The notes beneath the pieces were generated by a model. It worked only from the letters and a program-made list of their open reading frames with translations. It was not told the DNA's origin and ran no database searches. This document shows, in pieces, positions 1,735 to 46,142 of a stretch of DNA of 64,000 bases. How positions within the stretch are numbered: the stretch's first letter is position 1; the number at the start of each line of letters is the position of its first letter. The stretch comes from an uncultured Ruminococcus sp. (lineage in GTDB: Bacteria; Bacillota; Clostridia; Oscillospirales; CAG-272): contig CADBKZ010000002.1 in NCBI GenBank assembly GCA_902795355.1, positions 62,236 to 126,235 of the forward strand, written 5' to 3'. Made by a program: the position numbers and the translations under genes.

Positions 1735-3366
<1,632 letters not shown>

Positions 3367-6079: not shown

Positions 6080-9001
6080 TTATTTCCCCTCGCCGATGAC
6101 CGCGAAGAGGCTCCGCAGGCGGATCTTGACCGCGCCGAGGTTGGTAATCTCGTCGATCTTGATCTGCGTGTAGAGTTTTCCGCGGCTTTCGAGGATCGCC
6201 CGCGTTTCGTCGGTCGTCACCGCGTCCACGCCGCATCCGAACGACACGAGCTGCACCAAATGGATCGGTTGGTCGGTCGTTTCGGCAACGAACCTTGCCG
6301 CCGCGTACAGGCGGGCATGGTAGGTCCATTGGTTGAGGACCGTTGTTCCGAACGGGGCGACCTTTTGCGCCACCGCATCCTCGGTCAGAACCACCGCGCC
6401 GAGGTCGCAGAGCAGGCGGTCGATGCCGTGGTTGATTTCGGGGTCGATGTGGTAGGGTCTCCCCGCCAGCACAATGGCGGGCATGCCCTTCTCCTTGGCC
6501 AGCGCAAGGTATTCCCCGCCCTTTTGCCGAACGGCTTCCATATGCCCGTCGTAGGCGGCGTAGGCCTCTTTTGCGGCGCGTTTGGCGTCGCCGTCCGAAA
6601 CCGGAATCCCCTTTTCGGCCATCAGGCGCACGAAATGCCTGTGGAAGGTCTTTCGGTCGTGCAGGCTGATGAAGCCGTTGACGAAATTCACCGTTTCGGG
6701 AATTTTGACATTGGCTCCGATTACCGACGGATAATAGGCCACCACGGGGCAATTGTAGTGGTTGACGCCATAGCCCTCGTCCACATTGTAGCTCATGGCG
6801 GGATAGAACAGAATGTCCACCCCGCGATCCAGAAGATCCTCGATATGCCCATGGACGATCTTGGCTGGGTAGCAGGCGGTATCCGACGTTATGGTGTGCT
6901 GACCCCTGACATAGAGCGCGTGGTTGGATTCGCCCGAGACGACCACGTTATAGCCGAGGCGGTCGAAGAGCGTGTGCCAGAACGGCAGCAGTTCATAAAG
7001 GTTGAGCGCCATGGGAATACCCACCGTTGGCGCGTTGGGGTACTTCTTTTCGTTCCGGCGGTACTCCGCCAGCAGGTTGTATTTGTATTCGTAAAGGTTA
7101 TACCGCTCCTTGGCCGCGGCAAGGCGCAGCGGTTTTTCGCAGCGGTTGCCCGCGATGTAACGCCGACCGCCCGAAAAGCGGTTGATCGTCAGCCGGCAGT
7201 GGTTTGCGCAGCCGTTGCAGGTGGTGGCGGTTACTTGGTGCTCGAACGAGGCAAGCCCCGCCGCGTCGATCAGCGCGCTCTTCCCCGCAGCGGGATGCGC
7301 CATGGCGTAGAGCGCGGCTCCGTAGGCCCCCATCAGCCCCGCAACCGAGGGGCGAAGCACGTCCTTGCCGATCTCCTGCTCGAACGCGCGCAGAACCGCG
7401 TTGTTCAGGAAAGTTCCCCCCTGCACCACAATGTGGTTGCCGAGGGTTTTCGGGTTGGCGCACCGGATCACCTTATACAGCGCGTTCTTGACCACGCTGA
7501 TGGAAAGCCCCGCCGAAATGTTGGCAATGCCCGCGCCGTCCTTCTGCGCCTGCTTGACCGAGCTGTTCATGAACACGGTGCAGCGCGAACCGAGGTCCAC
7601 GGGCGAATCGGCAAACAACGCCTGCTCGGCAAACTCCCGCGGCGTGTAGCCGAGAACGCCCGCAAAGGTTTGCAGGAACGAGCCGCACCCCGAGGAGCAG
7701 GCCTCGTTGAGGAAAATGCTGTCGATCGCGCCGCCGCGGATGCGGAAGCATTTGATGTCCTGCCCGCCGATGTCGATGATGAAATCCACCTCGGGGCAGA
7801 AATGCGAAGCAGCCGTGTAATGCGCAACGGTCTCCACCACGCCGCGATCCACGCCGAACGCGCTTTGAATAATGGCCTCGCCGTAGCCCGTTACCGCCGA
7901 CCCCGCAATGCGAATGTCGGGGTATTTTTCGTAAATTCCGGTCAGATATCGGCGGATGAGCGGAACGGGGTTGCCGCTGTTGGGCAGATACATGGGAGAG
8001 AACAGGTTCCCCTCGCGGTCGCAAAGAACGGCCTTGACGGTGGTGGAACCCGCGTCGATCCCGAGGAACATTTCCCCGTTCGGCGCGTCAATCTCGCGGA
8101 TCCCGCGCGAATCGGCCTCGTGGCGGGCGAGAAATGCCTCGTATTCCCCGCGATTGGCAAAGAGCGGGCGGCAGCCCGCAAACCCGTTGCGGCTCCGATA
8201 GCCGTCCACCGTTGCGGCAAGCGATTCAAGGTCGGCCTCGGCCGCCGAGGGCGACACCGCCGCCCCGAGCGCAACGAACAGCAGCGAGTGTTCGGGGCAG
8301 GTCCCCGTAATCTTCAAAGTGTCGTCAAACGCGCGGCGCAAATAGGGGAAAAAGGTCAGCGGGCCGCCGAGATACAGCACGTTCCCCGCGATCTCGCGCC
8401 CCTGCGCCAGACCCGCAACGGTCTGGTTGACCACCGCATAAAAAATGCTGGCGGCAACGTCCTTTTTCTGCGCGCCTTGGTTGAGCAGGGGCTGAATATC
8501 CGATTTGGCGAACACGCCGCAGCGCGAGGCGATGGTGTAGAGCTTTTCGCTCTCGCCCGCCAGCTCGCCGAGTTCCTCGGGCGTCAGGTTCATCAGCTCG
8601 GCCATCTGGTCGATGAACGCGCCGGTGCCGCCCGCGCAGGTGCCGTTCATGCGCACTTCGAGCGATTCGCCGAGGAAGAGGATTTTCGCGTCCTCGCCGC
8701 CCAGCTCAATCACCGTGTCGATCTCCGGCATGCGGTCCTTGACCGCCAGACGCGTGGCGTAAACTTCCTGCACGAACGGCAGGCCGAGGTCGTTGGCAAT
8801 GCCCATGCCCGCCGACCCCGAAACGGCCAGCCGCATGGGTTCGTTCGGGTATTCTTTTGCAATGGCGCGCAACAGCGCGGCCACCATGGGCGCGATTTGC
8901 GACCGGTGGCGTTCGTAACTTGAATAAAGCAAGGCTCCGCTCTCCGAGAGCACCGCGCATTTGACGGTGGTGGAGCCGATGTCGATTCCGATTCGTTTCA
9001 A
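6080..9001 (-). CDS. BadF/BadG/BcrA/BcrD-type ATPase, double-domain 'CoA-substrate-specific enzyme activase' fused to a C-terminal uncharacterised domain
   Basis: 973 aa. Two actin-fold ATPase repeats (MKRIGIDIGSTTVKCAV..., FLGIDAGSTTVKAVL...) as in 2-hydroxyacyl-CoA dehydratase activators. Confidence 0.85.
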   Translation of the reverse strand: MKRIGIDIGSTTVKCAVLSESGALLYSSYERHRSQIAPMVAALLRAIAKEYPNEPMRLAVSGSAGMGIANDLGLPFVQEVYATRLAVKDRMPEIDTVIELGGEDAKILFLGESLEVRMNGTCAGGTGAFIDQMAELMNLTPEELGELAGESEKLYTIASRCGVFAKSDIQPLLNQGAQKKDVAASIFYAVVNQTVAGLAQGREIAGNVLYLGGPLTFFPYLRRAFDDTLKITGTCPEHSLLFVALGAAVSPSAAEADLESLAATVDGYRSRNGFAGCRPLFANRGEYEAFLARHEADSRGIREIDAPNGEMFLGIDAGSTTVKAVLCDREGNLFSPMYLPNSGNPVPLIRRYLTGIYEKYPDIRIAGSAVTGYGEAIIQSAFGVDRGVVETVAHYTAASHFCPEVDFIIDIGGQDIKCFRIRGGAIDSIFLNEACSSGCGSFLQTFAGVLGYTPREFAEQALFADSPVDLGSRCTVFMNSSVKQAQKDGAGIANISAGLSISVVKNALYKVIRCANPKTLGNHIVVQGGTFLNNAVLRAFEQEIGKDVLRPSVAGLMGAYGAALYAMAHPAAGKSALIDAAGLASFEHQVTATTCNGCANHCRLTINRFSGGRRYIAGNRCEKPLRLAAAKERYNLYEYKYNLLAEYRRNEKKYPNAPTVGIPMALNLYELLPFWHTLFDRLGYNVVVSGESNHALYVRGQHTITSDTACYPAKIVHGHIEDLLDRGVDILFYPAMSYNVDEGYGVNHYNCPVVAYYPSVIGANVKIPETVNFVNGFISLHDRKTFHRHFVRLMAEKGIPVSDGDAKRAAKEAYAAYDGHMEAVRQKGGEYLALAKEKGMPAIVLAGRPYHIDPEINHGIDRLLCDLGAVVLTEDAVAQKVAPFGTTVLNQWTYHARLYAAARFVAETTDQPIHLVQLVSFGCGVDAVTTDETRAILESRGKLYTQIKIDEITNLGAVKIRLRSLFAVIGEGK

Positions 9002-32830: not shown

Positions 32831-33622
32831 TTATTCGTTCCCGCCGCCCGAGAGAAAGCGGATCGCCTCGCGGATGTGCAGATCCCACCATTGCCAAGAG
32901 TGGTTCCCCTCGGATTCGGCATAGCGGTGCGCTATTCCGCCCTCGGTCAGGAGCGCGTGGAACCGCCGGTTCTCATCCAAGAGGGAATCTTCGGTCCCGC
33001 ACCACAGGAACATGCGCGGGAACGGTTCGCCCGCGGCCGCGCGGCGGCGCGCCAGACCGAACAGGTCGTCCCTGCCGTCCCGCAGGTCGTCCGCTCCGCG
33101 CAGGTCAAAGCCGAAAATGCCCCGCCACTCCCGCGCGGACCGTTCGTCGGATTTCTTCGCCTCGCAGCGGCGCAGAATATCCAGCGCGCCCGAGAGCGAC
33201 GCGCAGCCGCCGAACCGCTCGGGGTAGGTCAGCGCCGTTTTCAGCGCGCCGTATCCGCCCATGGAAAGCCCCGCGATCCACGTATCCTCGCGCCGCTCGG
33301 ACATTCCGCGGAAGAACCCGCGGCAAACCGACGGAAGCTCTTCCCCAACAAAGGTCAGGTAGGGCGCGCCGTCCGCCGTGTCGGTGTACCAGCTCCGCGC
33401 GACCTCGGGCATTACCACGGCGATCCGATGCTCGTCGGCGTACCGCTCGATCGACGTCCGGCGCATCCACATCGTGTGGTCGTCCGAAAGGCCGTGGAGC
33501 AGATAGAGCGTGGGACAGGGCTTCTCCCCCGCCCCTTTTTTGATGTACTCGGGAAGAATCACGCTCACCGGAACGCCCATGCGGAGAACGTCCGAAAAAA
33601 AGTGTGTTTCCATATAAGCCAT
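32831..33622 (-). CDS. Alpha/beta hydrolase, esterase D / tributyrin esterase-like
   Basis: MAYMETHFFSDVLRMGVPVSVILP...LYLLHGLSDDH...GLSMGGYGA (GxSxG nucleophile elbow). 263 aa. Confidence 0.8.
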   Translation of the reverse strand: MAYMETHFFSDVLRMGVPVSVILPEYIKKGAGEKPCPTLYLLHGLSDDHTMWMRRTSIERYADEHRIAVVMPEVARSWYTDTADGAPYLTFVGEELPSVCRGFFRGMSERREDTWIAGLSMGGYGALKTALTYPERFGGCASLSGALDILRRCEAKKSDERSAREWRGIFGFDLRGADDLRDGRDDLFGLARRRAAAGEPFPRMFLWCGTEDSLLDENRRFHALLTEGGIAHRYAESEGNHSWQWWDLHIREAIRFLSGGGNE

Positions 33623-33663
33623 GGCAGGAATCCCCCGTTGCAAAAAAATTTCGTTCGCCTACT

Positions 33664-33692
33664 ATTTTATCACTGCGCGGGCGCAATGTCAA
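33664..33692 (-). promoter_or_regulatory. Promoter TTGACA-17-TAAAAT (minus strand) for the esterase gene
   Basis: Plus strand shows atttta (33664-33669) and tgtcaa (33687-33692). Confidence 0.6.
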
Positions 33693-33745: not shown

Positions 33746-33774
33746 TTGACAAAGCGGAAAAGATGTGCTATAAT
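33746..33774 (+). promoter_or_regulatory. Promoter TTGACA-17-TATAAT driving T-box leader 1
   Basis: ttgaca at 33746-33751, 17-nt spacer, tataat at 33769-33774. Confidence 0.75.
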
Positions 33775-33780
33775 ACAGAA

Positions 33781-34056
33781 AATCAAACAAAAAGCGATGA
33801 CGAAGAAGGTCTGCGCCGATGTGTTTGCAGAGACCCGATGGTTGGTGCGAATCGGGAACACGGGCAAAAGACCCATCCCTTCCGAGCCGAAAGCGCGAAT
33901 CGGGGACGCTCCCCCATAGTAGTGTTTTCCGTGATTGCCGCGTGAGAGCATACGGGCTGTCTGGCCCCGAGGGATAACCGAAAGGTTATAATTTGAGTGG
34001 TACCGCGAGTGTAGAATACACCCGTCTCAAAGAAACGAGACGGGTGTATTTTTTTA
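33781..34056 (+). promoter_or_regulatory. T-box riboswitch leader 1 (hand-folded specifier AUC = Ile, tentative)
   Basis: GA/K-turn start agcgatgacgaag; AGAGA (33829-33833); distal-loop ggttggtgcga; T-box motif aatttgagtggtaccgcg (33990-34007); terminator atacacccgtctc / gagacgggtgtat plus T7 (34015-34056). Confidence 0.85.
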
Positions 34057-34085
34057 TGATTTCTCGAAAAAAAGGAGACAAAAAC

Positions 34086-36353
34086 ATGGCAACGGTTGCA
34101 AACGAAAAGCTGAACGAGATCGCCGCGCGGATCCGCGAGATGCGCGAAATTGCGGGATTCGAAACGGCCGAAATGGCGCAAAAAACCGAGGTAAGCGAGG
34201 AAGATTACCGCCTTTATGAATCGGGTCAACTCGATTTTCCGTTTACCTTTATTCACAAATGCGCGCTCGCGTTCGGCGTTGGCATTACCGACCTGCTGGA
34301 AGGGCAAAGTGCGCGCCTGCAATCCTACACGGTCACGCGCCGCGGGCAGGGGCAGGAGACCGCGCGCGAGGCGGGCATTGAAATTCAGAACCTTGCGCCG
34401 CTGTTCCGCAAAAAGATTGCGGAGCCGTATTGGGTGCGCTATACGTACAGCGAGGAGCTGCAGCACAAGCCCATTCACCTGACCAAGCATTCGGGGCAGG
34501 AGTTCGACTTTGTAATGAGCGGGCGGCTCAAAGTTCAGATCGGGGAAAATGTGGAATACCTCGGCGAGGGCGACAGCATTTACTACAACAGTTCCACGCC
34601 GCACGGCATGATCGCCGTGGACGGGCAGGATTGCCTGTTTGTCGCCGTGGTCCTCCCGGGAGAGGACGAATCCGAAACCGTTGTCCGCGAAACGTTGATC
34701 GCGGGTCGCTCGGGCAGCCGCTCGCTCGTTGCCGAACAGTTTGCGGAATGCACCGAGGACGAAAACGGGTTGGTCACGTCGGTCGCGTTCCATAACGAGG
34801 ACCGCTTCAACTTCGCGTTCGACATTGTGGACGCCATTGCGAAAAAATCGCCCGATAAGCTCGCCCTGCTCCACATTTCAAGGGAGAAAACCGAGCGGCG
34901 GTTCTCGTTCAACGACATCAAGCGCGCCTCGGCGCAATGCGCCAACTACTTCAAGGCCATCGGCATTCAAAAGGGCGACCGCGTAATGCTCGTTCTCAAA
35001 CGGCATTACCAATTCTGGTTCGCCATTCTCGGCCTGCATAAGCTCGGCGCCATCGTGATTCCCGCCACCAACCAATTGCAGGCGCACGACTTTGAATACC
35101 GCTTCCAAGCCGCGGGCGTTACCACGCTGATTTGCACGGCGGACGGGGACGTTGCACACCAAGCGGAGCTTGCCGAGGCGTCCTGCGGAATGTCCCTGCG
35201 CAAGCTGATGGTTGGCGGCGCGCGCGAGGGATGGCGCGATTTTGACGCGGAATACCCGCTTTACAGCGCGCATTTCTACCGCTCCGACGACACCCCCTGC
35301 GGCCGCGACCCCATGCTGATGTTCTTTACCTCGGGCACCACGGGCTACCCCAAAATTGCCGTTCATTCCTACCAATACCCGCTCGGCCATTACCTGACCG
35401 CCAAGTATTGGCACGGCGTGAGCGACGACGGCCTGCACTTTACCATTTCGGACACCGGCTGGGGCAAGGCGCTCTGGGGCAAGCTCTACGGGCAGTGGCT
35501 CTGCGAGGGCGCGGTGTTCGCCTACGACTTTGACCGTTTCGACGCTTCCGACATTCTGCCCATGTTCGCCAAATACGGCATTACCACCTTCTGCGCGCCG
35601 CCCACCATGCTCCGCATGATGATCAAACAGGATATTTCGCAATACGACCTTTCCTCGGTGCGCCGCATGACCACGGCGGGCGAGGCGCTCAACCCCGAAG
35701 TCTACCGCCGGTTCGAGCAGGCAACGGGACTGCGCATTATGGAAGGCTTCGGACAAACCGAAACCACGCTGACCATTGCCAACTTTATCGGCGGGCCGCA
35801 TAAGCTCGGCTCCATGGGCAAACCCTCTCCCCTGTTCGACATGGATCTGGTGGATGCAAACGGCAACCCCGTTGCCGACGGCGAGGTGGGGGAGATCGTG
35901 GTCCGCACCGACCGCCGCGTTCCCATCGGCCTCTTCCTCGGCTACTACCGCGACCCCGAAAAGACCGCAGAGGTCCTGCACGACGGCCTCTACCACACCG
36001 GCGACACCGCATGGCGCGACGAGGACGGCTTCTATTGGTACGTCGGCCGCGTGGACGACGTAATCAAGTCCTCGGGCTACCGCATCGGTCCGTTCGAGAT
36101 TGAAAGCGTGATCATGGAACTTCCCTATGTTCTGGAATGCGGCGTTTCCGCCGCGCCCGACGAGGTGCGCGGGCAGGTGGTCAAGGCTTCCATTGTGTTA
36201 ACGAAAGACGCCGAGCCCACCGAGGAATTGAAAAAAGAAATCCAGAACTACGTCAAAACGCACACCGCGCCGTATAAGTACCCCCGCATTGTGGTGTTCC
36301 GGAACGAGCTTCCCAAAACCATCAGCGGAAAGATTCAGCGGAACAAATTGTAA
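34086..36353 (+). CDS. Fusion protein: XRE-type HTH plus cupin domain plus AMP-forming medium-chain acyl-CoA synthetase (paralog 1)
   Basis: Start MATVANEKL after AGGAGA RBS, 755 aa. HTH (IAARIREMREIAGFETAEMAQKTEVSEEDYRLYESG), cupin (HSGQEFDFVMSGRLKVQIGE...GDSIYYNSSTPHGM), then adenylation motifs FTSGTTGYPK, ISDTGWGKALWGKLYGQW, GYYHTGD-like LYHTGDTA, SSGYRIGPFEIES, PKTISGKIQR. Confidence 0.88.
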   Translation: MATVANEKLNEIAARIREMREIAGFETAEMAQKTEVSEEDYRLYESGQLDFPFTFIHKCALAFGVGITDLLEGQSARLQSYTVTRRGQGQETAREAGIEIQNLAPLFRKKIAEPYWVRYTYSEELQHKPIHLTKHSGQEFDFVMSGRLKVQIGENVEYLGEGDSIYYNSSTPHGMIAVDGQDCLFVAVVLPGEDESETVVRETLIAGRSGSRSLVAEQFAECTEDENGLVTSVAFHNEDRFNFAFDIVDAIAKKSPDKLALLHISREKTERRFSFNDIKRASAQCANYFKAIGIQKGDRVMLVLKRHYQFWFAILGLHKLGAIVIPATNQLQAHDFEYRFQAAGVTTLICTADGDVAHQAELAEASCGMSLRKLMVGGAREGWRDFDAEYPLYSAHFYRSDDTPCGRDPMLMFFTSGTTGYPKIAVHSYQYPLGHYLTAKYWHGVSDDGLHFTISDTGWGKALWGKLYGQWLCEGAVFAYDFDRFDASDILPMFAKYGITTFCAPPTMLRMMIKQDISQYDLSSVRRMTTAGEALNPEVYRRFEQATGLRIMEGFGQTETTLTIANFIGGPHKLGSMGKPSPLFDMDLVDANGNPVADGEVGEIVVRTDRRVPIGLFLGYYRDPEKTAEVLHDGLYHTGDTAWRDEDGFYWYVGRVDDVIKSSGYRIGPFEIESVIMELPYVLECGVSAAPDEVRGQVVKASIVLTKDAEPTEELKKEIQNYVKTHTAPYKYPRIVVFRNELPKTISGKIQRNKL

Positions 36354-36442
36354 AAAACACCCGCGTTTTCCGTTTTTTCGGCAATAATCCGGCCGGAATT
36401 GCAAGTTTTTCCGTATAAAATTGCAGAAATTAAAAAAAGCGT

Positions 36443-36471
36443 ATTGACAAAAAAGCCACTTTGTGATAAAA
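36443..36471 (+). promoter_or_regulatory. Promoter TTGACA-17-TAAAAT driving T-box leader 2
   Basis: ttgaca at 36443-36448, 17-nt spacer, taaaat at 36466-36471. Confidence 0.7.
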
Positions 36472-36477
36472 TGTTAT

Positions 36478-36770
36478 CATCATAACAAAGGCGACGAAGG
36501 AAAGGGCTCCGTGCGGAGCGGTTCCCGCAGAGAATTGGCGGTTGGTGCAAGCCATGGAACGCGCGCGGCGTTTGTAGTTCCCGAGCCGGAAAGAAGAAAG
36601 CGGTTCTCCCGCAAGTAGAACTTTCCCGTGATTGCTGCGTCAAGGCATACGGATTCTTCGGGATCCGGACGAGTGGCGGCCCATGCGACCGCAATTTGAG
36701 TGGTACCGCGAGTGTGATTTTGCGCACCCGTCTCAAAGTCAGAACGCTTTGGGACGGGTGCGCTTTTCGT
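36478..36770 (+). promoter_or_regulatory. T-box riboswitch leader 2 (hand-folded specifier GUA = Val, tentative)
   Basis: GA/K-turn ggcgacgaagg; AGAGA (36529-36533); ggttggtgcaa distal loop; T-box motif aatttgagtggtaccgcg (36693-36710); terminator gcgcacccgtc / gacgggtgcgc plus tttt (36722-36770). Confidence 0.85.
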
Positions 36771-36789
36771 CCCCGAAAGGATGTGCTTT

Positions 36790-39069
36790 ATGACAGAACT
36801 TGATCAAAAGATCCGCGAGATGGCGCAACGGATCCGCGAGCTGCGCGAAATCGAGGGATTTTCTCCCGAACAGATGGCCGCGGGGACCGACACTTCGGTG
36901 GAAGAATACCTTGATTGCGAGAACGGCCGCAGCGACCTGAACTTTGCTTTCATCTACCGTTGCGCAAACCTTCTCGGCGTAAATGTGACCGACATCATCG
37001 AGGGTTACAGCCCCAAACTCCGCTCCTATACCGTTACCCGCAGCGGCGACGGGCAGGAAGTTGCCAAGGCGCACGGCATGACCTATTTCAACCTTGCCTA
37101 CGATTTCCAGAACCGCATTGCCGAGCCGCTGTACGTCACCATCGACTACAACGCCGAGGCCGAACGCCGCGAGATTGAACTCACCACCCACGACGGGCAG
37201 GAATGCGACATTGTGGTGCGCGGGCATCTGACCGTTCAGGTGGGAAACCACCGCGAAACGCTCGGCCCCGGGGACAGCATCTATTTTGACAGTAAGACCC
37301 CCCACGGTATGATTGCGACGGGCGGCGAAAACTGCGTGTTCTACGCCATTGTCCTCAACCCGTCCGGCGAGCCGATCCCCGAGCTGGAATCCCCCGCTCC
37401 CGTAACCGAGCCGACGCCCGCGCGTCGCGACGACCGCGACCGCATCTGGCGCAATTTCATTGACGTGGAAGAGGATGAAAACGGCGCGCCGCTCTCCATC
37501 CGCTTCAAGAACGCCGACCGCTTCAACTTCGCGTTCGATTTGGTGGACGCGCTTGCCAAGCGCGAGCCGGAAAAGCTCGCCATGCTCCATGTTGCCAAAG
37601 ATAAAACCGAACGACGCTTCACCTTTACCGATATGAAGCGCGCCTCGGCGCAATGCGCCAACTACTTCAAAGCCATCGGCGTCAAAAAGGGCGACCGCGT
37701 GCTGCTCGTTCTCAAACGGCATTACCAATTCTGGTTCGCCATGCTGGGGCTGAACAAGCTCGGCGCCATCGGCATTCTCGCCACCAACCAGCTGCAAGCG
37801 CACGATTTCGAATACCGCTTCAACGCGGCGGAAATTTCAGCCGTTCTCTGCACCGCGGACGGCGACACCGCGCATCAGGTGGACCTTGTTGCCGGCGTTT
37901 GCCCCTCGCTCAAAGAGAAGATCCTTGTTGGCGGTTCGCGCGAGGGCTGGCGGAATTTCGATGAGGAATACCCGCTTTACAGCGCGCATTTCCACCGTAC
38001 CGAGGAAAGCCCCTGCGGCAACGACCCCATGATCGCCTTCTTTACTTCCGGCACCTCGGGCTACCCCAAACTCGCGCTTCATAATTGCAAGTACGCCCTC
38101 GGCCATTTCCACACCGCCAAATATTGGCATACCGTGGATCCCGACGGCCTGCATTTTACCATTTCGGATACGGGCTGGGCAAAATCCATGTGGGGCAAGC
38201 TCTACGGGCAATGGCTCTGCGAAGCCCCGATCTTCGTTTACGATTTCGACCGCTTCGACGCGGCCGACATCCTGCCCATGTTCGCCAAGTACCATATTAC
38301 GTCGTTCTGCGCGCCGCCCACCATGCTCCGCATGATGATCAAGCAGGATATTTCCAAGTACGATTTTTCTTCCGTGGAGCATATGACCACGGCGGGCGAG
38401 GCGCTCAACCCCGAGGTCTACCGCCAATTCGAGCGGCTCACGGGTTTGCAGATCCACGAGGGCTTCGGCCAATCCGAAAGCACCATGATCATCGGCAACA
38501 TGGTCGGCTCGCCGCATAAAGTGGGCTCCATGGGCAAACCCGCGCCGATCTACGACGTGGAATTGGTGGACGCGAACGGCAAACCCGTGAAAAACAGCGA
38601 AAACGGAGAGATCGTGATCAACCTTAAAAACGGACTTCCCTGCGGGCTTGCCACCGAATACTACCGCGATCCCGAAAAAACCGCCGAAACTTGGCGGAAC
38701 GGCTATTACCATACGGGCGACGTGGCTTGGCGCGACGAGGACGGGTATTATTGGTATGTCGGCCGCGTGGACGACGTAATCAAGTCCTCGGGCTACCGCA
38801 TCGGTCCGTTCGAGATTGAAAGCGTGATCATGGAGCTTCCCTATGTGCTGGAATGCGGCGTTTCCGCCGCGCCCGACGAAGTGCGCGGGCAGGTGGTCAA
38901 GGCTTCCATCGTGTTAACAAAGGGTACCGAACCCACCGAGGAACTGAAAAAGGAAATCCAGAATTACGTCAAAGCGCACACCGCTCCGTATAAGTACCCC
39001 CGCATTGTGGTGTTCCGCGAAAGCCTGCCGAAAACCGTGAGCGGCAAAATCCAGAGGAATCTGCTATGA
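36790..39069 (+). CDS. Fusion protein: XRE-type HTH plus cupin domain plus AMP-forming medium-chain acyl-CoA synthetase (paralog 2)
   Basis: Start MTELDQKIREMAQRIRELREIEGFS after GAAAGGA RBS, 759 aa. Same three-domain layout as paralog 1. The C-terminal roughly 100 aa are nearly identical to paralog 1. Confidence 0.88.
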   Translation: MTELDQKIREMAQRIRELREIEGFSPEQMAAGTDTSVEEYLDCENGRSDLNFAFIYRCANLLGVNVTDIIEGYSPKLRSYTVTRSGDGQEVAKAHGMTYFNLAYDFQNRIAEPLYVTIDYNAEAERREIELTTHDGQECDIVVRGHLTVQVGNHRETLGPGDSIYFDSKTPHGMIATGGENCVFYAIVLNPSGEPIPELESPAPVTEPTPARRDDRDRIWRNFIDVEEDENGAPLSIRFKNADRFNFAFDLVDALAKREPEKLAMLHVAKDKTERRFTFTDMKRASAQCANYFKAIGVKKGDRVLLVLKRHYQFWFAMLGLNKLGAIGILATNQLQAHDFEYRFNAAEISAVLCTADGDTAHQVDLVAGVCPSLKEKILVGGSREGWRNFDEEYPLYSAHFHRTEESPCGNDPMIAFFTSGTSGYPKLALHNCKYALGHFHTAKYWHTVDPDGLHFTISDTGWAKSMWGKLYGQWLCEAPIFVYDFDRFDAADILPMFAKYHITSFCAPPTMLRMMIKQDISKYDFSSVEHMTTAGEALNPEVYRQFERLTGLQIHEGFGQSESTMIIGNMVGSPHKVGSMGKPAPIYDVELVDANGKPVKNSENGEIVINLKNGLPCGLATEYYRDPEKTAETWRNGYYHTGDVAWRDEDGYYWYVGRVDDVIKSSGYRIGPFEIESVIMELPYVLECGVSAAPDEVRGQVVKASIVLTKGTEPTEELKKEIQNYVKAHTAPYKYPRIVVFRESLPKTVSGKIQRNLL

Positions 39070-39749
39070 AATTCCGCCGCGTAACCCTGCTTTCGGGGCA
39101 TTACGGGAGCGGGAAAACCAACATTGCGGTCAACCTCGCGCTCCGCATGCGGGAGCAATACCCCCGCGTTGCCGTGGCCGATCTTGACATTGTGAACCCC
39201 TATTTCCGCACCAAGGACAGCGACGCCGATTTTGCCCACGCGGGCATCCGGCTGATCTCCTCGGCGTTCGCCAATTCCAACCTCGACCTGCCCGCCATGC
39301 CGCAGGACCTTTACGCCGTTACCGACGACCGCTCGCTCCGCGTGATCGTGGACGTCGGCGGCGACGACCGCGGCGCGCTCGCGCTCGGCCGGCTTGCCCC
39401 CGCCCTGCTGGAAGAGAACGACTTTGAAATGCTGTTGGTAATTAACCGCTTCCGCCCGCTCACGCGCGACGCGGCTTCCACGCTCGAGGTCAAAGCCGAA
39501 ATCGAGGCGGCCTGCGGCATCCCGTTCACGGGCATCGTCAACAACTCCAACCTCGGCGCGGAAACCACCGCCGAAACCGTGCTTTTCTCGGCGGCCTATG
39601 CGGAAGAGGTCGCCCGCCTTTCGGGGCTGCCCGTTGTGTACACCTCGGCGGTAACGTCGGTTTGCGAACAACTCGCGGGCAAAATTCCGAACCTGCTTCC
39701 CCTGCGCCTGCAAAAGAAAATTACCGATAAACGGGAGGATCCGACATGA
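39066..39749 (+). CDS. P-loop NTPase of unknown function (MinD/CooC/SIMIBI-like appearance)
   Basis: 227 aa. MKFRRVTLLSGHYGSGKTNIAVNLA (Walker A), VADLDIVNPYF, VDVGGDDRG. ATGA overlap with the upstream stop. Confidence 0.65.
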   Translation: MKFRRVTLLSGHYGSGKTNIAVNLALRMREQYPRVAVADLDIVNPYFRTKDSDADFAHAGIRLISSAFANSNLDLPAMPQDLYAVTDDRSLRVIVDVGGDDRGALALGRLAPALLEENDFEMLLVINRFRPLTRDAASTLEVKAEIEAACGIPFTGIVNNSNLGAETTAETVLFSAAYAEEVARLSGLPVVYTSAVTSVCEQLAGKIPNLLPLRLQKKITDKREDPT

Positions 39750-41035
39750 AAAAACCGACGGTGGAAACCATTTGCGTTCAGGGCGGCTACCGCCCAAAGA
39801 ACGGCGAACCCCGCCAAGTCCCCATCGTTCAAAGCACCACTTTCAAATACGATACGGGCGAGGACATGGGCAAGCTGTTCGATCTGGAAGCCAGCGGCTA
39901 TTTCTACACCCGCCTGCAAAACCCCACCAACGACGCGGTTGCGGCCAAAATTGCCGAAATGGAAGGCGGAACCGCTGCCATGCTCACCTCGTCGGGTCAG
40001 GCGGCAAACTTCTATGCGGTGTTCAACATCGCGTCCTGCGGCGACCACGTAATCTCCTGCTCGTCCATCTACGGCGGGACCTTCAACCTGTTCTCCGTTA
40101 CCATGAAGAAAATGGGGATCGACTTCACCTTTCTCTCCCCCGACGCCTCGGAAGAGGAGCTGGACGCCGCGTTCCGCCCCAACACCAAGGCGGTGTTCGG
40201 CGAGACCATCGCCAACCCCGCGCTCCGCGTGCTGGACATTGAAAAGTTCGCGCGCGCCGCGCATCGCCACGGCGTGCCGCTGATCGTGGACAACACGTTC
40301 GCCACCCCCGTCAACTGCCGCCCGTTCGAGTGGGGCGCCGACATCGTGACCCACTCCACCACCAAGTATATGGACGGCCACGGCAGCGGCGTCGGCGGCT
40401 GCATTGTGGATAGCGGAAAATTCGATTGGAGCCGCTACCCCGACCGTTTCGCGGGGCTTTGCACGCCCGACGAAAGTTACCACGGCGTTACTTATGTGGA
40501 GCGTTTCGGCATTGGCGGCGCGTTCATTACCAAAGCCACCGCGCAACTGATGCGCGATTTCGGCTCCATTCAATCCCCGCAGAACGCGTTTCTGCTCAAC
40601 ATGGGGCTGGAAAGCCTGCATGTGCGCATGAAACGCCATTGCGAGAACGGGCAGGCGGTTGCGGAATTTCTTGCGAACGACCCGCGCGTTTCGTGGGTTT
40701 CCTACTGCGGTCTCCCGACCGACCGCGACTATACCTTGGCGCAGAAATACCTGCCCAACGGCTCCTGCGGCGTGGTCAGCTTCGGGGTTAAAGGCGGCCG
40801 CGCCGCGGCGGAAGCGTTCATGCGCAATCTCAAAATCGCCGCCATCGAGACTCACGTTGCCGACGCGCGCACCTGTTGCCTGCACCCCGCAAGCACCACC
40901 CACCGCCAGATGAACGACGAGGAATTGCTCGCCGCAGGCGTTTCCCCCGACCTCGTCCGCTTCTCCTGCGGGCTTGAAAGCGCGGAGGACCTGATTGCCG
41001 ACATTGACCAAGCGTTGGCGGCCGTAAATGTCTGA
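39746..41035 (+). CDS. metY: O-acetylhomoserine sulfhydrylase / aminocarboxypropyltransferase (PLP, Cys/Met metabolism family)
   Basis: 429 aa. IVQSTTFKYD, GYFYTRLQNPTND, HSTTKYMDGHG (PLP-lysine block). 4-bp overlap with the upstream gene. Confidence 0.85.
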   Translation: MKKPTVETICVQGGYRPKNGEPRQVPIVQSTTFKYDTGEDMGKLFDLEASGYFYTRLQNPTNDAVAAKIAEMEGGTAAMLTSSGQAANFYAVFNIASCGDHVISCSSIYGGTFNLFSVTMKKMGIDFTFLSPDASEEELDAAFRPNTKAVFGETIANPALRVLDIEKFARAAHRHGVPLIVDNTFATPVNCRPFEWGADIVTHSTTKYMDGHGSGVGGCIVDSGKFDWSRYPDRFAGLCTPDESYHGVTYVERFGIGGAFITKATAQLMRDFGSIQSPQNAFLLNMGLESLHVRMKRHCENGQAVAEFLANDPRVSWVSYCGLPTDRDYTLAQKYLPNGSCGVVSFGVKGGRAAAEAFMRNLKIAAIETHVADARTCCLHPASTTHRQMNDEELLAAGVSPDLVRFSCGLESAEDLIADIDQALAAVNV

Positions 41036-41071: not shown

Positions 41072-41278
41072 ATGTCGAAACTGACCTTCAACACCGACAA
41101 CTGCAAGGGTTGCGGACTCTGCGTGGATGCCTGTCCCAAGCATATCCTGCGCCTCGCGACCGACAAGATCAACAAAAAGGGACATCACCCCGCCGAGATC
41201 ATCGATCAAGCGGCTTGCATCGCCTGCGCGTGCTGCGCGCTGATGTGCCCTGACGTGATCATTACGGTGGAGAAATAA
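41072..41278 (+). CDS. 4Fe-4S ferredoxin-type delta subunit of 2-oxoacid:ferredoxin oxidoreductase
   Basis: 68 aa with two CxxCxxCxxxCP motifs (CKGCGLCVDACP, CIACACCALMCP). Confidence 0.85.
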   Translation: MSKLTFNTDNCKGCGLCVDACPKHILRLATDKINKKGHHPAEIIDQAACIACACCALMCPDVIITVEK

Positions 41279-41290
41279 GGAGGGGAGCAA

Positions 41291-42355
<1,065 letters not shown>

Positions 42356-42356
42356 C

Positions 42357-43112
42357 ATGGTCGTATTTCAAAAACCGCACGCCCTGACCGACGCGCCGTT
42401 CCATTATTGCCCCGGGTGTACCCACGGCATTATCCACCGTCTGGTCGCCGAGGTGATCGACGAACTCGGCATCGAGGGCAAAACCATCGGCATCGCCCCC
42501 GTGGGCTGCTCGGTGATGGCCTATAACTACTTCAACTGCGATATGATCGAAGCCGCGCACGGCCGCGCGCCCGCCGTTGCCACCGGCGTTAAGCGCGCCA
42601 ACCCCGAAAACATTGTGTTTACCTATCAGGGCGACGGCGACCTCGCTTCCATCGGCATGGCCGAAACCGTCCACTCGGCGGCGAGAAACGAAAACATCAC
42701 CGTTATCTTCATCAACAACGCGATCTACGGCATGACGGGCGGGCAAATGGCCCCCACCTCGCTCCCGGGTCAGGTAACGCAAACCTCTCCCTACGGCCGC
42801 GATGTGAAAGCCTGCGGCTACCCCATCCGCGTTTGCGAGATGCTCTCGGAGCTGGAAGGCCCCGAATACCTCGAACGCGTGACCGTGAACAGCGTTCCCA
42901 ACATCCGCAAAGCGAAAAAAGCCATCCGGAAGGCGTTTCAGAACCAGATTGAGGGCAAGGGCTTCTCGCTGATCGAGGTGATCTCTTCCTGCCCCACCAA
43001 CTGGGGCATGACGCCGCAAGCGGCGCTCAAATGGATTGACGACAAGATGATCCCCTACTACCCGCTCGGCGTTTACAAGGACCGTTCCGCACAGAAGGAG
43101 GAAGCGAAATGA
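42357..43112 (+). CDS. 2-oxoacid:ferredoxin oxidoreductase beta subunit (TPP-binding)
   Basis: 251 aa. CPGCTHGI, GDGD...NNAIYGMTGGQ thiamine-diphosphate motif. Confidence 0.85.
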   Translation: MVVFQKPHALTDAPFHYCPGCTHGIIHRLVAEVIDELGIEGKTIGIAPVGCSVMAYNYFNCDMIEAAHGRAPAVATGVKRANPENIVFTYQGDGDLASIGMAETVHSAARNENITVIFINNAIYGMTGGQMAPTSLPGQVTQTSPYGRDVKACGYPIRVCEMLSELEGPEYLERVTVNSVPNIRKAKKAIRKAFQNQIEGKGFSLIEVISSCPTNWGMTPQAALKWIDDKMIPYYPLGVYKDRSAQKEEAK

Positions 43113-43642
43113 AAACCACACAGTTCCTTTTCTCCGGTTTCGGCGGTCAGGGCATCCTGTTCGCGGGCAAGTTCCTCGCCTACAAAGGGCTGATCGAGGG
43201 CAAGCAGGTCAGCTGGCTCCCGTCCTACGGTCCCGAAATGCGCGGCGGAACGGCGAGTTGCAGCGTAATCGTCAGCGACGGCGCGGTGGGTTCGCCCATT
43301 GTTTCCAAGCCCGATGTGCTGGTTGCCATGAACCTTCCCTCGCTCGACCGGTTTGAATCCTCGGTCGTCCCCGGCGGCATGATCTTTGCCGACAGCACGC
43401 TGATTGAGCGCAGGACGGCGCGCGACGACGTAAAAGCGTTTTACGTTCCCGCAACCAAGCTCGCGAGCGACAACGGCTACCCCACCCTTGCCAACATGAT
43501 TCTGCTCGGCAAAATTCTCGCCGAGCTCGGCGAGTTCAGCGGCGAGGGCGTGGAAGCGGCCCTTGCAAAGGTGATTTCCGCCAAGCACGCCGACATGAAA
43601 GAAGTCAATCTGAACGCCCTGCGTCTCGGCGCGGCGCAATGA
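43109..43642 (+). CDS. 2-oxoacid:ferredoxin oxidoreductase gamma subunit
   Basis: 177 aa. FSGFGGQGILFAGKFLA, SYGPEMRGGTA. ATGA overlap with the beta subunit gene. Confidence 0.85.
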   Translation: MKTTQFLFSGFGGQGILFAGKFLAYKGLIEGKQVSWLPSYGPEMRGGTASCSVIVSDGAVGSPIVSKPDVLVAMNLPSLDRFESSVVPGGMIFADSTLIERRTARDDVKAFYVPATKLASDNGYPTLANMILLGKILAELGEFSGEGVEAALAKVISAKHADMKEVNLNALRLGAAQ

Positions 43643-43659
43643 ACAAGGAGAACATTACC

Positions 43660-46142
<2,483 letters not shown>

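Follow-up and report, generated by a model that had tools for sequence, protein, structure and literature searches.

Paired T-box leaders with isoleucine and valine specifiers precede two acyl-CoA synthetase paralogs and a candidate branched-acid salvage operon in an uncultured Ruminococcus

T-box leaders of the Rfam family RF00230, e.g. those of B. subtilis ileS (AUC), valS (GUA), and ilv-leu (Leu), share a Stem I with K-turn, specifier loop, AG bulge, and distal loop, a Stem II/IIA-B/III region, and a T-box sequence whose UGGN bulge lies within competing antiterminator and terminator structures. AUC and GUA are the usual specifiers of ileS and valS. Known targets include aminoacyl-tRNA synthetases, de novo ilv/leu genes, and transporters. 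The specifier reliably indicates what the controlled genes do (PMC2494555), and T-box regulons are known to grow when a duplicated leader acquires a different specifier (PMC2494555, PMC3766115). Among acyl-CoA synthetases, MacsMa of Methanosarcina acetivorans (PDB 3ETC) prefers 2-methylbutyrate (PMC10455477) and MbcS of S. aureus is selective for 2-methylbutyrate and isobutyrate (PMC10026030). The reductive carboxylation of branched-chain volatile fatty acids to branched-chain amino acids in rumen anaerobes requires an acyl-CoA synthetase, a 2-oxoisovalerate:ferredoxin oxidoreductase (VOR), and the aminotransferase IlvE. Allison and Bryant reportedly defined the fluxes of this branched acid carboxylation, not its genes or regulation, in the 1960s.

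We analyzed a 64,000-nucleotide stretch of DNA from an uncultured Ruminococcus sp. (the window), in which two T-box leaders follow one another on the + strand, as do all features located below. As the first-pass annotation had claimed, they carry different specifiers, AUC (Ile) and GUA (Val), each ahead of its own synthetase paralog. The elements and the codons are those of the ileS and valS leaders, but the targets differ from the known ones in being acyl-CoA synthetases and a VOR/IlvE salvage operon, a combination that we did not find in T-box surveys or full-text literature searches. The mechanism, T-box attenuation, is known; no description of this regulon was found. We consider it very probable that the two leaders act as independent, paralogous attenuators gating branched-acid salvage genes, Ile first and then Val.

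An all-families Rfam search of the whole window returned the leaders with E values of 1.1e-17 (leader 1) and 4e-11 (leader 2), and RF00230 itself matched 33788-34032 with 87.8 bits (E 5.3e-19) and 36485-36738 with 62.3 bits (E 2e-12). The gathering score of this family is 93 bits; neither leader is listed by a default Rfam scan at that score, so routine annotation overlooks both. This is a threshold issue rather than missing homology, because E values of 5e-19 and 2e-12 were obtained over the full model (positions 1-219 in both cases). Some orthologous leaders exceed the gathering score (105.1 bits in locus L057) and most members of the group lie below it, indicating that a considerable group of genuine T-boxes, marked by a compact specifier loop and a missing S-turn, goes unseen at the Rfam threshold. 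Both leaders contain a K-turn, an AG bulge, a distal loop, a T-box sequence, and a mutually exclusive terminator. They have in common CAGAGA (AG bulge) and GGUUGGUG (distal loop), elements of the tRNA-elbow platform, as well as the T-box sequence AAUUUGAGUGGUACCGCG and the arm CCCGUCUCA that is shared by terminator and antiterminator. The distal helix covaries in orthologues. Each sequence statement made earlier, including the common Stem I frame, held on re-checking, and the covariance-model alignment places both specifier loops where they had been proposed. No tRNA gene was found within the 64-kb window.

Leader 1 is preceded by a promoter at 33746-33774 (TTGACA, 17 nt, TATAAT, with an extended -10 TG; 12/12 consensus matches). 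Its Stem I (33794-33887), defined by covariance-model alignment, folding, and orthologue covariation, has the K-turn frame GC(33794-95)-GAU-GA-C-GAAG(33802-05), closed by CUUC(33879-82)-C-GA-GC(33886-87), with the lower helix 33802-05:33879-82, the AG bulge at 33828-33, and the distal loop at 33840-47. The specifier AUC occupies 33875-33877 and is followed by C at 33878. In contrast to the canonical T-box, the specifier loop of leader 1 is compact, with 2 nt in its 5' strand and 5 nt in its 3' strand, and has no S-turn, the AGUA element being deleted in the covariance-model alignment; after the codon, bases other than purines also occur in this class. The T-box sequence spans 33990-34007 by sequence and alignment, and its UGGU bulge (33998-34001) is the predicted partner of the ACCA end of an A73 tRNA. 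An intrinsic terminator with a 16-bp stem and a U-run follows at 34013-34052 (-38.7 kcal/mol for the folded segment, z -5.5), its 5' arm overlapping the 3' half of the antiterminator.

Leader 2 repeats this layout. Its promoter (36444-36472; TTGACA, 17 nt, TAAAAT, extended -10 TG) has 11/12 consensus matches, and no terminator was seen on inspection of the interval between paralog 1 and leader 2. Stem I (36491-36586; covariance-model alignment and orthologue covariation) has the frame GC(36491-92)-GAC-GA-A-GGAA(36499-502), closed by UUCC(36578-81)-C-GA-GC(36585-86), with a lower helix 36499-502:36578-81, an upper helix of about 36507-13:36564-70, the AG bulge at 36528-33, and the distal loop at 36540-47. 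The specifier loop has AGGG in its 5' strand and UUUGUAG in its 3' strand, the latter containing GUA at 36574-36576 and then G at 36577; the purine after the codon is thus present, and GAA is absent. The T-box sequence (36693-36710, by sequence and alignment) has its UGGU bulge at 36701-36704, and the intrinsic terminator, an 18-bp stem with UUUU, lies at 36722-36763 (z -5.0).

The codon plus one base of the covariance model ("uuc a") aligns with AUC+C in leader 1 and GUA+G in leader 2, and the lower helix follows immediately. The same positions were obtained from the RF00230 alignment, from a structural locator based on the K-turn and lower helix (run on 159 T-box sites), and from 80 related loci, for six of which RF00230 alignments were made and agree. 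Leaders before genes of the paralog 1 clade (ACS1) carry AUC in 66 of 67 cases, and those before the paralog 2 clade (ACS2; n = 62) carry GUA (52) or GUC (10), a synonymous change. Read from codon to gene, the linkage is complete: 66/66 AUC leaders stand before ACS1-type genes and 61/61 GUA/GUC leaders before ACS2-type genes. The orthologues therefore split into AUC versus GUA/GUC, one per synthetase clade, and both original codon calls stand. The doubt that had been attached to the pyrimidine after AUC can be dropped; of the leaders in this class, 35 have A at this position, 24 have C, and 7 have G, C being a common variant and not a register error.

Helix conservation agrees with this register. 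In an alignment of 141 leaders, chosen partly on lower-helix pairing (the Rfam alignments are independent of that choice), 97.4% of the lower-helix and above-loop-helix cells pair, versus 28-43% with the partners slid, and compensatory changes occur at all 4 lower-helix pairs. Two further covariation analyses gave 94.5% and 87.3% helix pairing, and a hairpin with U-run is present in 144 of 147 orthologous leaders.

In other registers, the codon of leader 1 would be CAU (His) or UCN (Ser) and that of leader 2 UGU (Cys) or UUG (Leu); alternatively, one amino acid would apply to both, e.g. Met via metY. Such a reading could draw on the +1 register of the leader 1 orthologues (UCA, UCC, and UCG, all Ser), on UGU in 55 of 61 class-2 leaders, and on the MetY-like gene within the operon. 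However, in the window and in six loci the covariance model sets the codon and one further base immediately ahead of the lower helix. Class 1 read in the -1 register gives CAU, UAU, GAU, and AAU, four different amino acids; in class 2 this register breaks in 6 leaders, and the +1 register yields stop codons. The CAU reading of leader 1 was rejected, as the base before AUC varies (C 47, U 17, G 1, A 1). The antiterminator bulge reads UGGU in both leaders and throughout the orthologues, with U at the variable position in all + strand T-box-like sites before ACS or LeuA-like genes, which predicts an A73 discriminator. tRNA-Ile and tRNA-Val carry A73, whereas the tRNAs for His, Cys, and Ser carry C73, U73, and G73, respectively; the earlier view that CAU and UGU do not fit is borne out by the variable flanking base and the constant bulge. 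A single codon for both leaders was also checked: AUG, which would fit metY, is in neither loop, and metY is absent from the operon in 80/80 loci. The neighbouring genes, moreover, belong to branched-chain amino acid metabolism. Any of these other registers is extremely improbable.

The two leaders precede paralog 1 (34086-36353, 755 aa) and paralog 2 (36781-39069, 762 aa), which are 67% identical and in which an HTH-cupin part is fused to an acyl-CoA synthetase, of short/medium-chain type in paralog 1, according to Pfam and NCBIfam. A neighbour-joining tree of 143 proteins resolves two clades that are exactly the Ile-linked and the Val-linked synthetases. The best solved relative of paralog 1 is MacsMa (3ETC, E 2e-191 over the catalytic domain, residues about 239-753); the alternate pocket Trp is kept (W442, equivalent to Trp259 of MacsMa) and Gly replaces the pocket Trp of Acs. 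The best NCBIfam match is MbcS (NF047394), with 414 bits against an equivalog cutoff of 850 that is not reached. Unlike MacsMa and MbcS, the proteins of the window add an N-terminal XRE-type HTH and a cupin (about 190 to 240 aa), and they occur as two T-box-specified paralogs beside VOR/IlvE, with predicted substrates.

We infer substrate preference from homology, operon partners, and T-box specifiers. The paralogs probably activate a branched short-chain fatty acid, and from the pairing of paralog and specifier it is plausible that paralog 1 uses 2-methylbutyrate (leading to Ile) and paralog 2 isobutyrate (leading to Val). The only clade-fixed difference in the catalytic domain is Gly460 (Ile clade) versus Ala467 (Val clade) in the motif SDTGW[G/A]K. 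By a manual alignment it would correspond to Val310 of S. enterica Acs, an acyl-pocket residue reportedly described by Gulick in 2003 and Ingram-Smith in 2006. The smaller residue (Gly) would then pair with the larger acid. By separating 67%-identical paralogs into Ile and Val clades across at least 60 species, the specifiers bring substrate prediction down to one Gly/Ala position. Nearly all clade-fixed differences fall in the fused HTH-cupin domain (10 of 11).

A single fixed catalytic difference against ten in the HTH-cupin part counts against substrate specialization of the clades. Both paralogs might instead accept the same broad set of branched acids, Ile or Val starvation merely raising the total amount of synthetase, and differ mainly in HTH-cupin sensing. 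The distribution of fixed differences would suit this explanation, as would the use of both 2-methylbutyrate and isobutyrate by MbcS itself (PMC10026030) and the sufficiency of a single Ile-leader ACS in some genomes. It is nevertheless rather unlikely, given the strict codon-to-clade linkage held across about 60 species and the Gly/Ala exchange by the GW motif, at the position aligned with an acyl-pocket residue of Acs, in a direction that fits C5 versus C4 acids.

Downstream of paralog 2 lie a P-loop NTPase gene (39066-39749; a weak CbiA/ParA/Mrp-like profile match, found beside vorD in related loci), a gene for an O-acetylhomoserine sulfhydrylase-like (MetY-like) enzyme (39746-41035; TIGR01326, 567.6 bits vs cutoff 495), and genes for VOR (VorDBAC, 41072-43642; Pfam and NCBIfam), IlvE (43639-44721; NF009897, 475.7 bits vs cutoff 307), and the NADP-specific glutamate dehydrogenase GdhA (44676-46142; NF006929, 773.5 bits vs cutoff 536). 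VOR comprises the ferredoxin VorD (41072-41278, 68 aa, two Cys clusters), VorB alpha (41291-42355; NF005507, 544.3 bits vs cutoff 399), and the beta TPP (42357-43112) and gamma (43109-43642) subunits, both recognized by Pfam domains. The MetY-like gene is an insertion specific to this genome and has no obvious role in the salvage pathway. GdhA as the last operon gene is likewise found in this genome only, compared with the 80 related loci.

Those loci belong to rumen and gut Oscillospirales and allies. About 45 of the 80 have the full core order T[Ile]-ACS1 / T[Val]-ACS2-Ploop-VorDBAC, and shorter contigs show parts of it. Dozens of bacteria from gut and rumen keep the paired arrangement. In most loci IlvE comes after VorC, in some directly after ACS2; related loci also carry a Leu-specifier T-box before a LeuA-like gene, and in L036, L039, and L055 a single Ile-leader ACS stands ahead of Ploop-Vor-IlvE.

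We infer as follows how the leaders respond to tRNA, which substrates are used, and which way the flux runs. Transcription from the sigma-70-type promoter of leader 1 would end at its terminator unless uncharged tRNA-Ile binds, its anticodon (GAU expected) pairing with AUC and its free ACCA end with the UGGU bulge; this pairing would stabilize the antiterminator and allow transcription of paralog 1. Leader 2, supplied by its own promoter and by any read-through from paralog 1, would take the same decision through uncharged tRNA-Val on GUA and gate paralog 2, the P-loop protein, the MetY-like enzyme, VorDBAC, IlvE, and GdhA. The synthetase would join a branched short-chain fatty acid to CoA, VOR would carboxylate the resulting thioester reductively to the 2-oxo acid, and IlvE would transaminate this to the amino acid, with GdhA supplying glutamate. 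The gene set fits a route by which starved cells rebuild Ile from 2-methylbutyrate and Val from isobutyrate. The proposal that read-through from leader 1 also feeds the operon holds only under a condition: no terminator separates paralog 1 from leader 2, but the leader 2 terminator still lies ahead, so such transcripts would reach the operon only when uncharged tRNA-Val is available. A point against this regulatory logic is that Ile starvation alone would induce paralog 1 and not VOR or IlvE, both of which are behind the Val leader.

The same genes could serve branched-chain amino acid breakdown, with VOR working oxidatively, or deliver acyl-CoAs to FabH as lipid primers. VOR is reversible, and in S. 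aureus MbcS, the top NCBIfam match, provides the primers from which branched-chain fatty acids are made (PMC10026030, PMC11167679). Against such roles, a T-box switches on with uncharged cognate tRNA, as is useful for making or importing an amino acid but not for degrading it; an AMP-forming synthetase working catabolically yields no energy; IlvE and NADP-GdhA share the transcript; and the Leu T-box of related loci is tied to a LeuA-like gene. We regard breakdown or primer supply as improbable.

Salvage remains the preferred reading, and it matches the requirement of rumen branched-chain volatile fatty acid carboxylation for an acyl-CoA synthetase, VOR, and IlvE; compared with the classical work, the activation step would here be assigned to specific paralogs and tied to tRNA charging. 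This links a defined gene cluster and its regulation to the classical isobutyrate and 2-methylbutyrate dependence of rumen and gut anaerobes, a dependence that matters for ruminant nutrition ("isoacids") and for the pools of branched-chain amino acids and fatty acids in the gut. A wider and more tentative possibility is that salvage in gut and rumen Clostridia is modular, each branched-chain amino acid having its own tRNA sensor: an Ile T-box for a 2-methylbutyrate-specific synthetase, a Val T-box for an isobutyrate-specific synthetase and the shared VOR/IlvE, and, in many genomes, a Leu T-box for a LeuA-like gene and a TIM-barrel::AMP-binding fusion. The specifier codons would then name the substrates of otherwise indistinguishable paralogs, and the HTH-cupin might form a second, ligand-specific control layer through allosteric feedback or DNA binding. 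If true, this would be the first gene-level and regulatory account of the rumen branched-chain volatile fatty acid requirement. A cultured carrier of the arrangement exists, Erysipelotrichaceae bacterium NK3D112 (L060), which opens these predictions to laboratory work.

Both leaders are real T-boxes that score slightly below the curated RF00230 threshold of 93 bits. With E-value reporting in Rfam, leader 1 (5' of paralog 1) matches the entire model at 33788-34032 (87.8 bits, E 5.3e-19), as does leader 2 (5' of paralog 2) at 36485-36738 (62.3 bits, E 2e-12); for the whole window searched against all Rfam families, the values are E 1.1e-17 and 4e-11, respectively. The default Rfam scan at the gathering threshold lists neither leader, and the E-value mode alone revealed them. 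The Stem I frames read in the sequence are as the first-pass annotation had described: GC-GAU-GA-C-GAAG (33794-33805) closed by CUUC-C-GA-GC (33879-33887) in leader 1, and GC-GAC-GA-A-GGAA (36491-36502) closed by UUCC-C-GA-GC (36578-36586) in leader 2. That annotation had also proposed the specifiers AUC (Ile; 33875-33877, then C at 33878) and GUA (Val; 36574-36576, then G at 36577), and in the RF00230 covariance-model alignment the codon-plus-one positions fall on AUC+C and GUA+G. Both leaders carry the T-box sequence AAUUUGAGUGGUACCGCG, with UGGU at 33998-34001 and 36701-36704.

Each leader follows a near-consensus promoter with an extended -10 (TTGACA-17-TATAAT, 33746-33774; TTGACA-17-TAAAAT, 36444-36472) and contains one of the region's two strongest terminator-like hairpins (34013-34052, z -5.5; 36722-36763, z -5.0). 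In each leader CCCGUCUCA serves the terminator as its 5' arm and the antiterminator as its 3' arm, which makes these folds mutually exclusive. Stem I folded alone by minimum free energy gave z -0.4 and +1.8. The two leaders are paralogous; they can be aligned over their full length and differ mostly in Stem I. They share every mechanistic feature tested with the T-box family, from which they differ in a reduced specifier loop. An inverted repeat, TGTTATCATCATAACA, lies directly 3' of the promoter 2 -10 (36472-36487) and possibly serves the HTH domain as an operator; visual inspection of a few orthologous leaders revealed no similar repeat. A near-consensus divergent promoter (33664-33692, minus strand; TTGACA-17-TAAAAT with TG) stands back to back with promoter 1 and faces an esterase-family gene (32831-33643, minus strand). 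Elsewhere in the window, a 6S/SsrS RNA-like match to RF00013 (13867-14081, minus strand; 44.8 bits, E 9e-06) just missed the gathering score of 46.4.

Paralog 1 (34086-36353, 755 aa) combines an XRE-type HTH, a cupin and an AMP-forming acyl-CoA synthetase, and paralog 2 (36781-39069, 762 aa) has the same domain order and is 67% identical to it. The best NCBIfam match for both is MbcS (414 bits, under the equivalog cutoff), which selects 2-methylbutyrate and isobutyrate as substrates (PMC10026030), and the nearest solved structure is 3ETC (E 2e-191), that of MacsMa from Methanosarcina acetivorans, which prefers 2-methylbutyrate as substrate (PMC10455477). Downstream lie genes for a P-loop protein (39066-39749), a MetY-like O-acetylhomoserine sulfhydrylase (39746-41035), a two-cluster ferredoxin (VorD, 41072-41278), VorB with the TPP beta and gamma subunits (41291-43642), IlvE (43639-44721) and NADP-GdhA (44676-46142). 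Given these gene families and the relatedness to MbcS and MacsMa, the operon is predicted to encode activation of branched short-chain acids, their reductive carboxylation to 2-oxo acids and transamination, plus glutamate supply; a role for GdhA as supplier of the amino donor makes sense. The MetY-like and GdhA genes lie within the Val-T-box operon in the window's genome only, and in none of the 80 related loci described below. The P-loop protein (220-227 aa; also, e.g., L002:14939-15601 in a related locus) has only weak CbiA/ParA/Mrp-like matches. Wherever a locus extends as far as vorD, the P-loop gene adjoins it; the P-loop gene is usually directly 3' of the last synthetase gene, with ilvE between these two in some loci. 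The protein might act in Fe-S maturation of the 2-oxoisovalerate:ferredoxin oxidoreductase (VOR).

A scan with one genome per species retrieved 80 loci with HTH-cupin synthetases 70-87% identical, almost all of them from Oscillospirales and related Clostridia of the rumen or gut. In most, one T-box sequence lies ~90 nt ahead of the paralog-1 orthologue and another separates the two paralogs, and many have a third ~7 kb further on. A length-restricted K-turn locator, which relied on the K-turn, the lower helix, the AG bulge and the distal loop, placed Stem I at 150 of the 159 T-box-like sites. Of 147 orthologous leaders, 144 are followed by a terminator. In six loci (L022, L031, L038, L049, L059 and L072) both synthetase genes are adjacent, with a gap of ~60 nt in L022. 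The TGGNACCRCG motif is absent near these genes, so the six loci are taken to lack the internal leader, and their regulation may differ.

Among the 150 located leaders, the four bases 5' of the lower helix sort into a small number of classes: AUC (66), GUA (51), GUC (10), CUC (17) and CUG (3), plus three mis-registered or unclear cases, one of which (L013) reads GUAG by eye. All 66 AUC leaders precede a paralog-1-type gene and all 61 GUA or GUC leaders a paralog-2-type gene; CUC and CUG leaders have a LeuA-like gene downstream. A neighbour-joining tree of 143 synthetases shows two clades that match the codon classes exactly. Rfam alignments of 13 leaders (from L014, L020, L057, L063, L065 and L068), obtained independently of the locator, give the same register in 11, including AUC+A beside a compensated CCUC or CUCC helix, GUC+A, GUC+G and GUA+A. 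The two exceptions, both in L065 and both unclear in register, precede the paralog-1 gene (3042-3292) and the P-loop-vor genes (8451-8702); their AUC lies 3-4 nt farther from the lower helix, and they read, from loop to helix, AUCAAAU then CUCC and AUCUGAAU then CUUC.

Other specifier registers fail. CAU and UGU had already been judged unsuitable in the first-pass annotation; the base 5' of AUC can be C, U, G or A, the base 5' of GUN disrupts UGU in six leaders, and the +1 register of class 2 (the leader 2 orthologues) gives stop codons. An AUG (Met) specifier, suggested by metY, was rejected: neither loop contains AUG, and metY is specific to the window's genome. The prediction of an A73 discriminator from the UGGU bulge extends to the related loci, the discriminator-pairing base being U at all plus-strand T-box-like sites 5' of acyl-CoA synthetase or LeuA-like genes. 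This fits tRNA-Ile, tRNA-Val and tRNA-Leu, all of which carry A73. Doubt had been voiced over the pyrimidine after AUC in leader 1; class-1 leaders (the leader 1 orthologues) have A (35), C (24) or G (7) there, so the C is a normal variant of its class. The window's closest relatives (L030, L028 and L004) have C as well. The original observation is confirmed and its interpretation supported.

Since RNAalifold on MAFFT alignments recovered the distal helix alone, we counted pairs explicitly in the orthologous leaders. The lower helix shows compensatory changes at 4/4 pairs, and the whole tested structure is 97.4% paired, versus 28-43% with partners slid, in sequences partly selected on lower-helix pairing. 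The helix above the specifier loop, which played no part in sequence selection, covaries in both classes. The class-1 specifier loop is very small, with 2 bases on the 5' side and 5 (N-AUC-N) on the 3' side, and has neither an S-turn nor a purine requirement 3' of the codon; in the class-2 loop the 5' strand is AGNN and the 3' strand NNN-GUA-G. These departures probably account for the scores of most members (61-88 bits), which lie under the Rfam threshold.

The arrangement is best read as classical T-box attenuation at two successive points. Leader 1 would open in response to uncharged tRNA-Ile, allowing paralog 1 to be made, and leader 2 in response to uncharged tRNA-Val, allowing production of paralog 2 and the shared VOR, IlvE and GdhA proteins. 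Read-through from leader 1 had been proposed to feed the operon, and no terminator was found between the paralog 1 stop codon (36353) and promoter 2; however, such transcripts would reach leader 2 and undergo the same Val check, so they would feed the operon only when Val is also limiting. A puzzle follows: in the window's arrangement, VOR and IlvE would stay uninduced if Ile were the only amino acid lacking. Three loci (L036, L039 and L055) have an Ile leader and a single synthetase directly 5' of the P-loop-Vor-IlvE genes, and the extra T-box 5' of P-loop-Vor in L065 is a paralog of that locus's paralog-1 leader. Probably a unit of leader plus synthetase was duplicated in tandem and the specifier then switched; T-boxes are known to evolve in this way (PMC2494555, PMC3766115).

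From the strict codon/clade linkage, we predict 2-methylbutyrate as the substrate of paralog 1 and isobutyrate as that of paralog 2. In the catalytic domain the clades have a single fixed difference (Gly460 versus Ala467, in SDTGW[G/A]K). When aligned by hand with E. coli/S. enterica Acs (TADVGW-VT-GHSY), this position coincides with Val310, which we take to be one of four acetate-pocket residues. The smaller residue accompanies the larger acid, in line with the prediction. The remaining ten of 11 clade-fixed differences map to the HTH-cupin region (residues 44-131 in paralog 1; the region itself spans 34086-34650 in paralog 1 and 36781-37360 in paralog 2), suggesting that this domain may recognise a clade-specific ligand. 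They also keep alive the rather doubtful alternative that the synthetases are not specialised, in which case the paralogs may differ mainly in what the HTH-cupin domain senses. The T-box regulon has useful predictive value for enzyme function.

In full-text literature searches and in genome-wide T-box surveys, we found no report of T-box control of acyl-CoA synthetases or VOR, nor of a T-box linked to isobutyrate; the riboswitch class is well known and the regulon is new, with prior mention possible. Its predicted chemistry resembles classical rumen-anaerobe physiology, in which branched-chain volatile fatty acids are precursors of branched-chain amino acids, a conversion that Allison and Bryant reportedly described in rumen anaerobes. 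The same precursor role is documented in methanogens (PMC10658910).

The third T-box of the relatives has a Leu specifier, CUC or CUG (L002:19373-19600, L010:10010-10250, L014:5481-5714 and ~20 other loci). The LeuA-like gene 3' of it encodes HMGL-like and LeuA_dimer domains, below IPMS cutoffs. This module was sought in the window and is absent there. In several loci the next gene encodes an 825-aa fusion of a xylose-isomerase-like TIM barrel and an AMP-binding enzyme (L014:7180-9657; also, e.g., L010, L013, L036, L048 and L060). We rejected it as a third HTH-cupin paralog, the AMP-binding enzyme being distant (~25% identical); the window lacks this fusion gene too. One of these loci, L060, belongs to Erysipelotrichaceae bacterium NK3D112, a cultured carrier suitable for testing.
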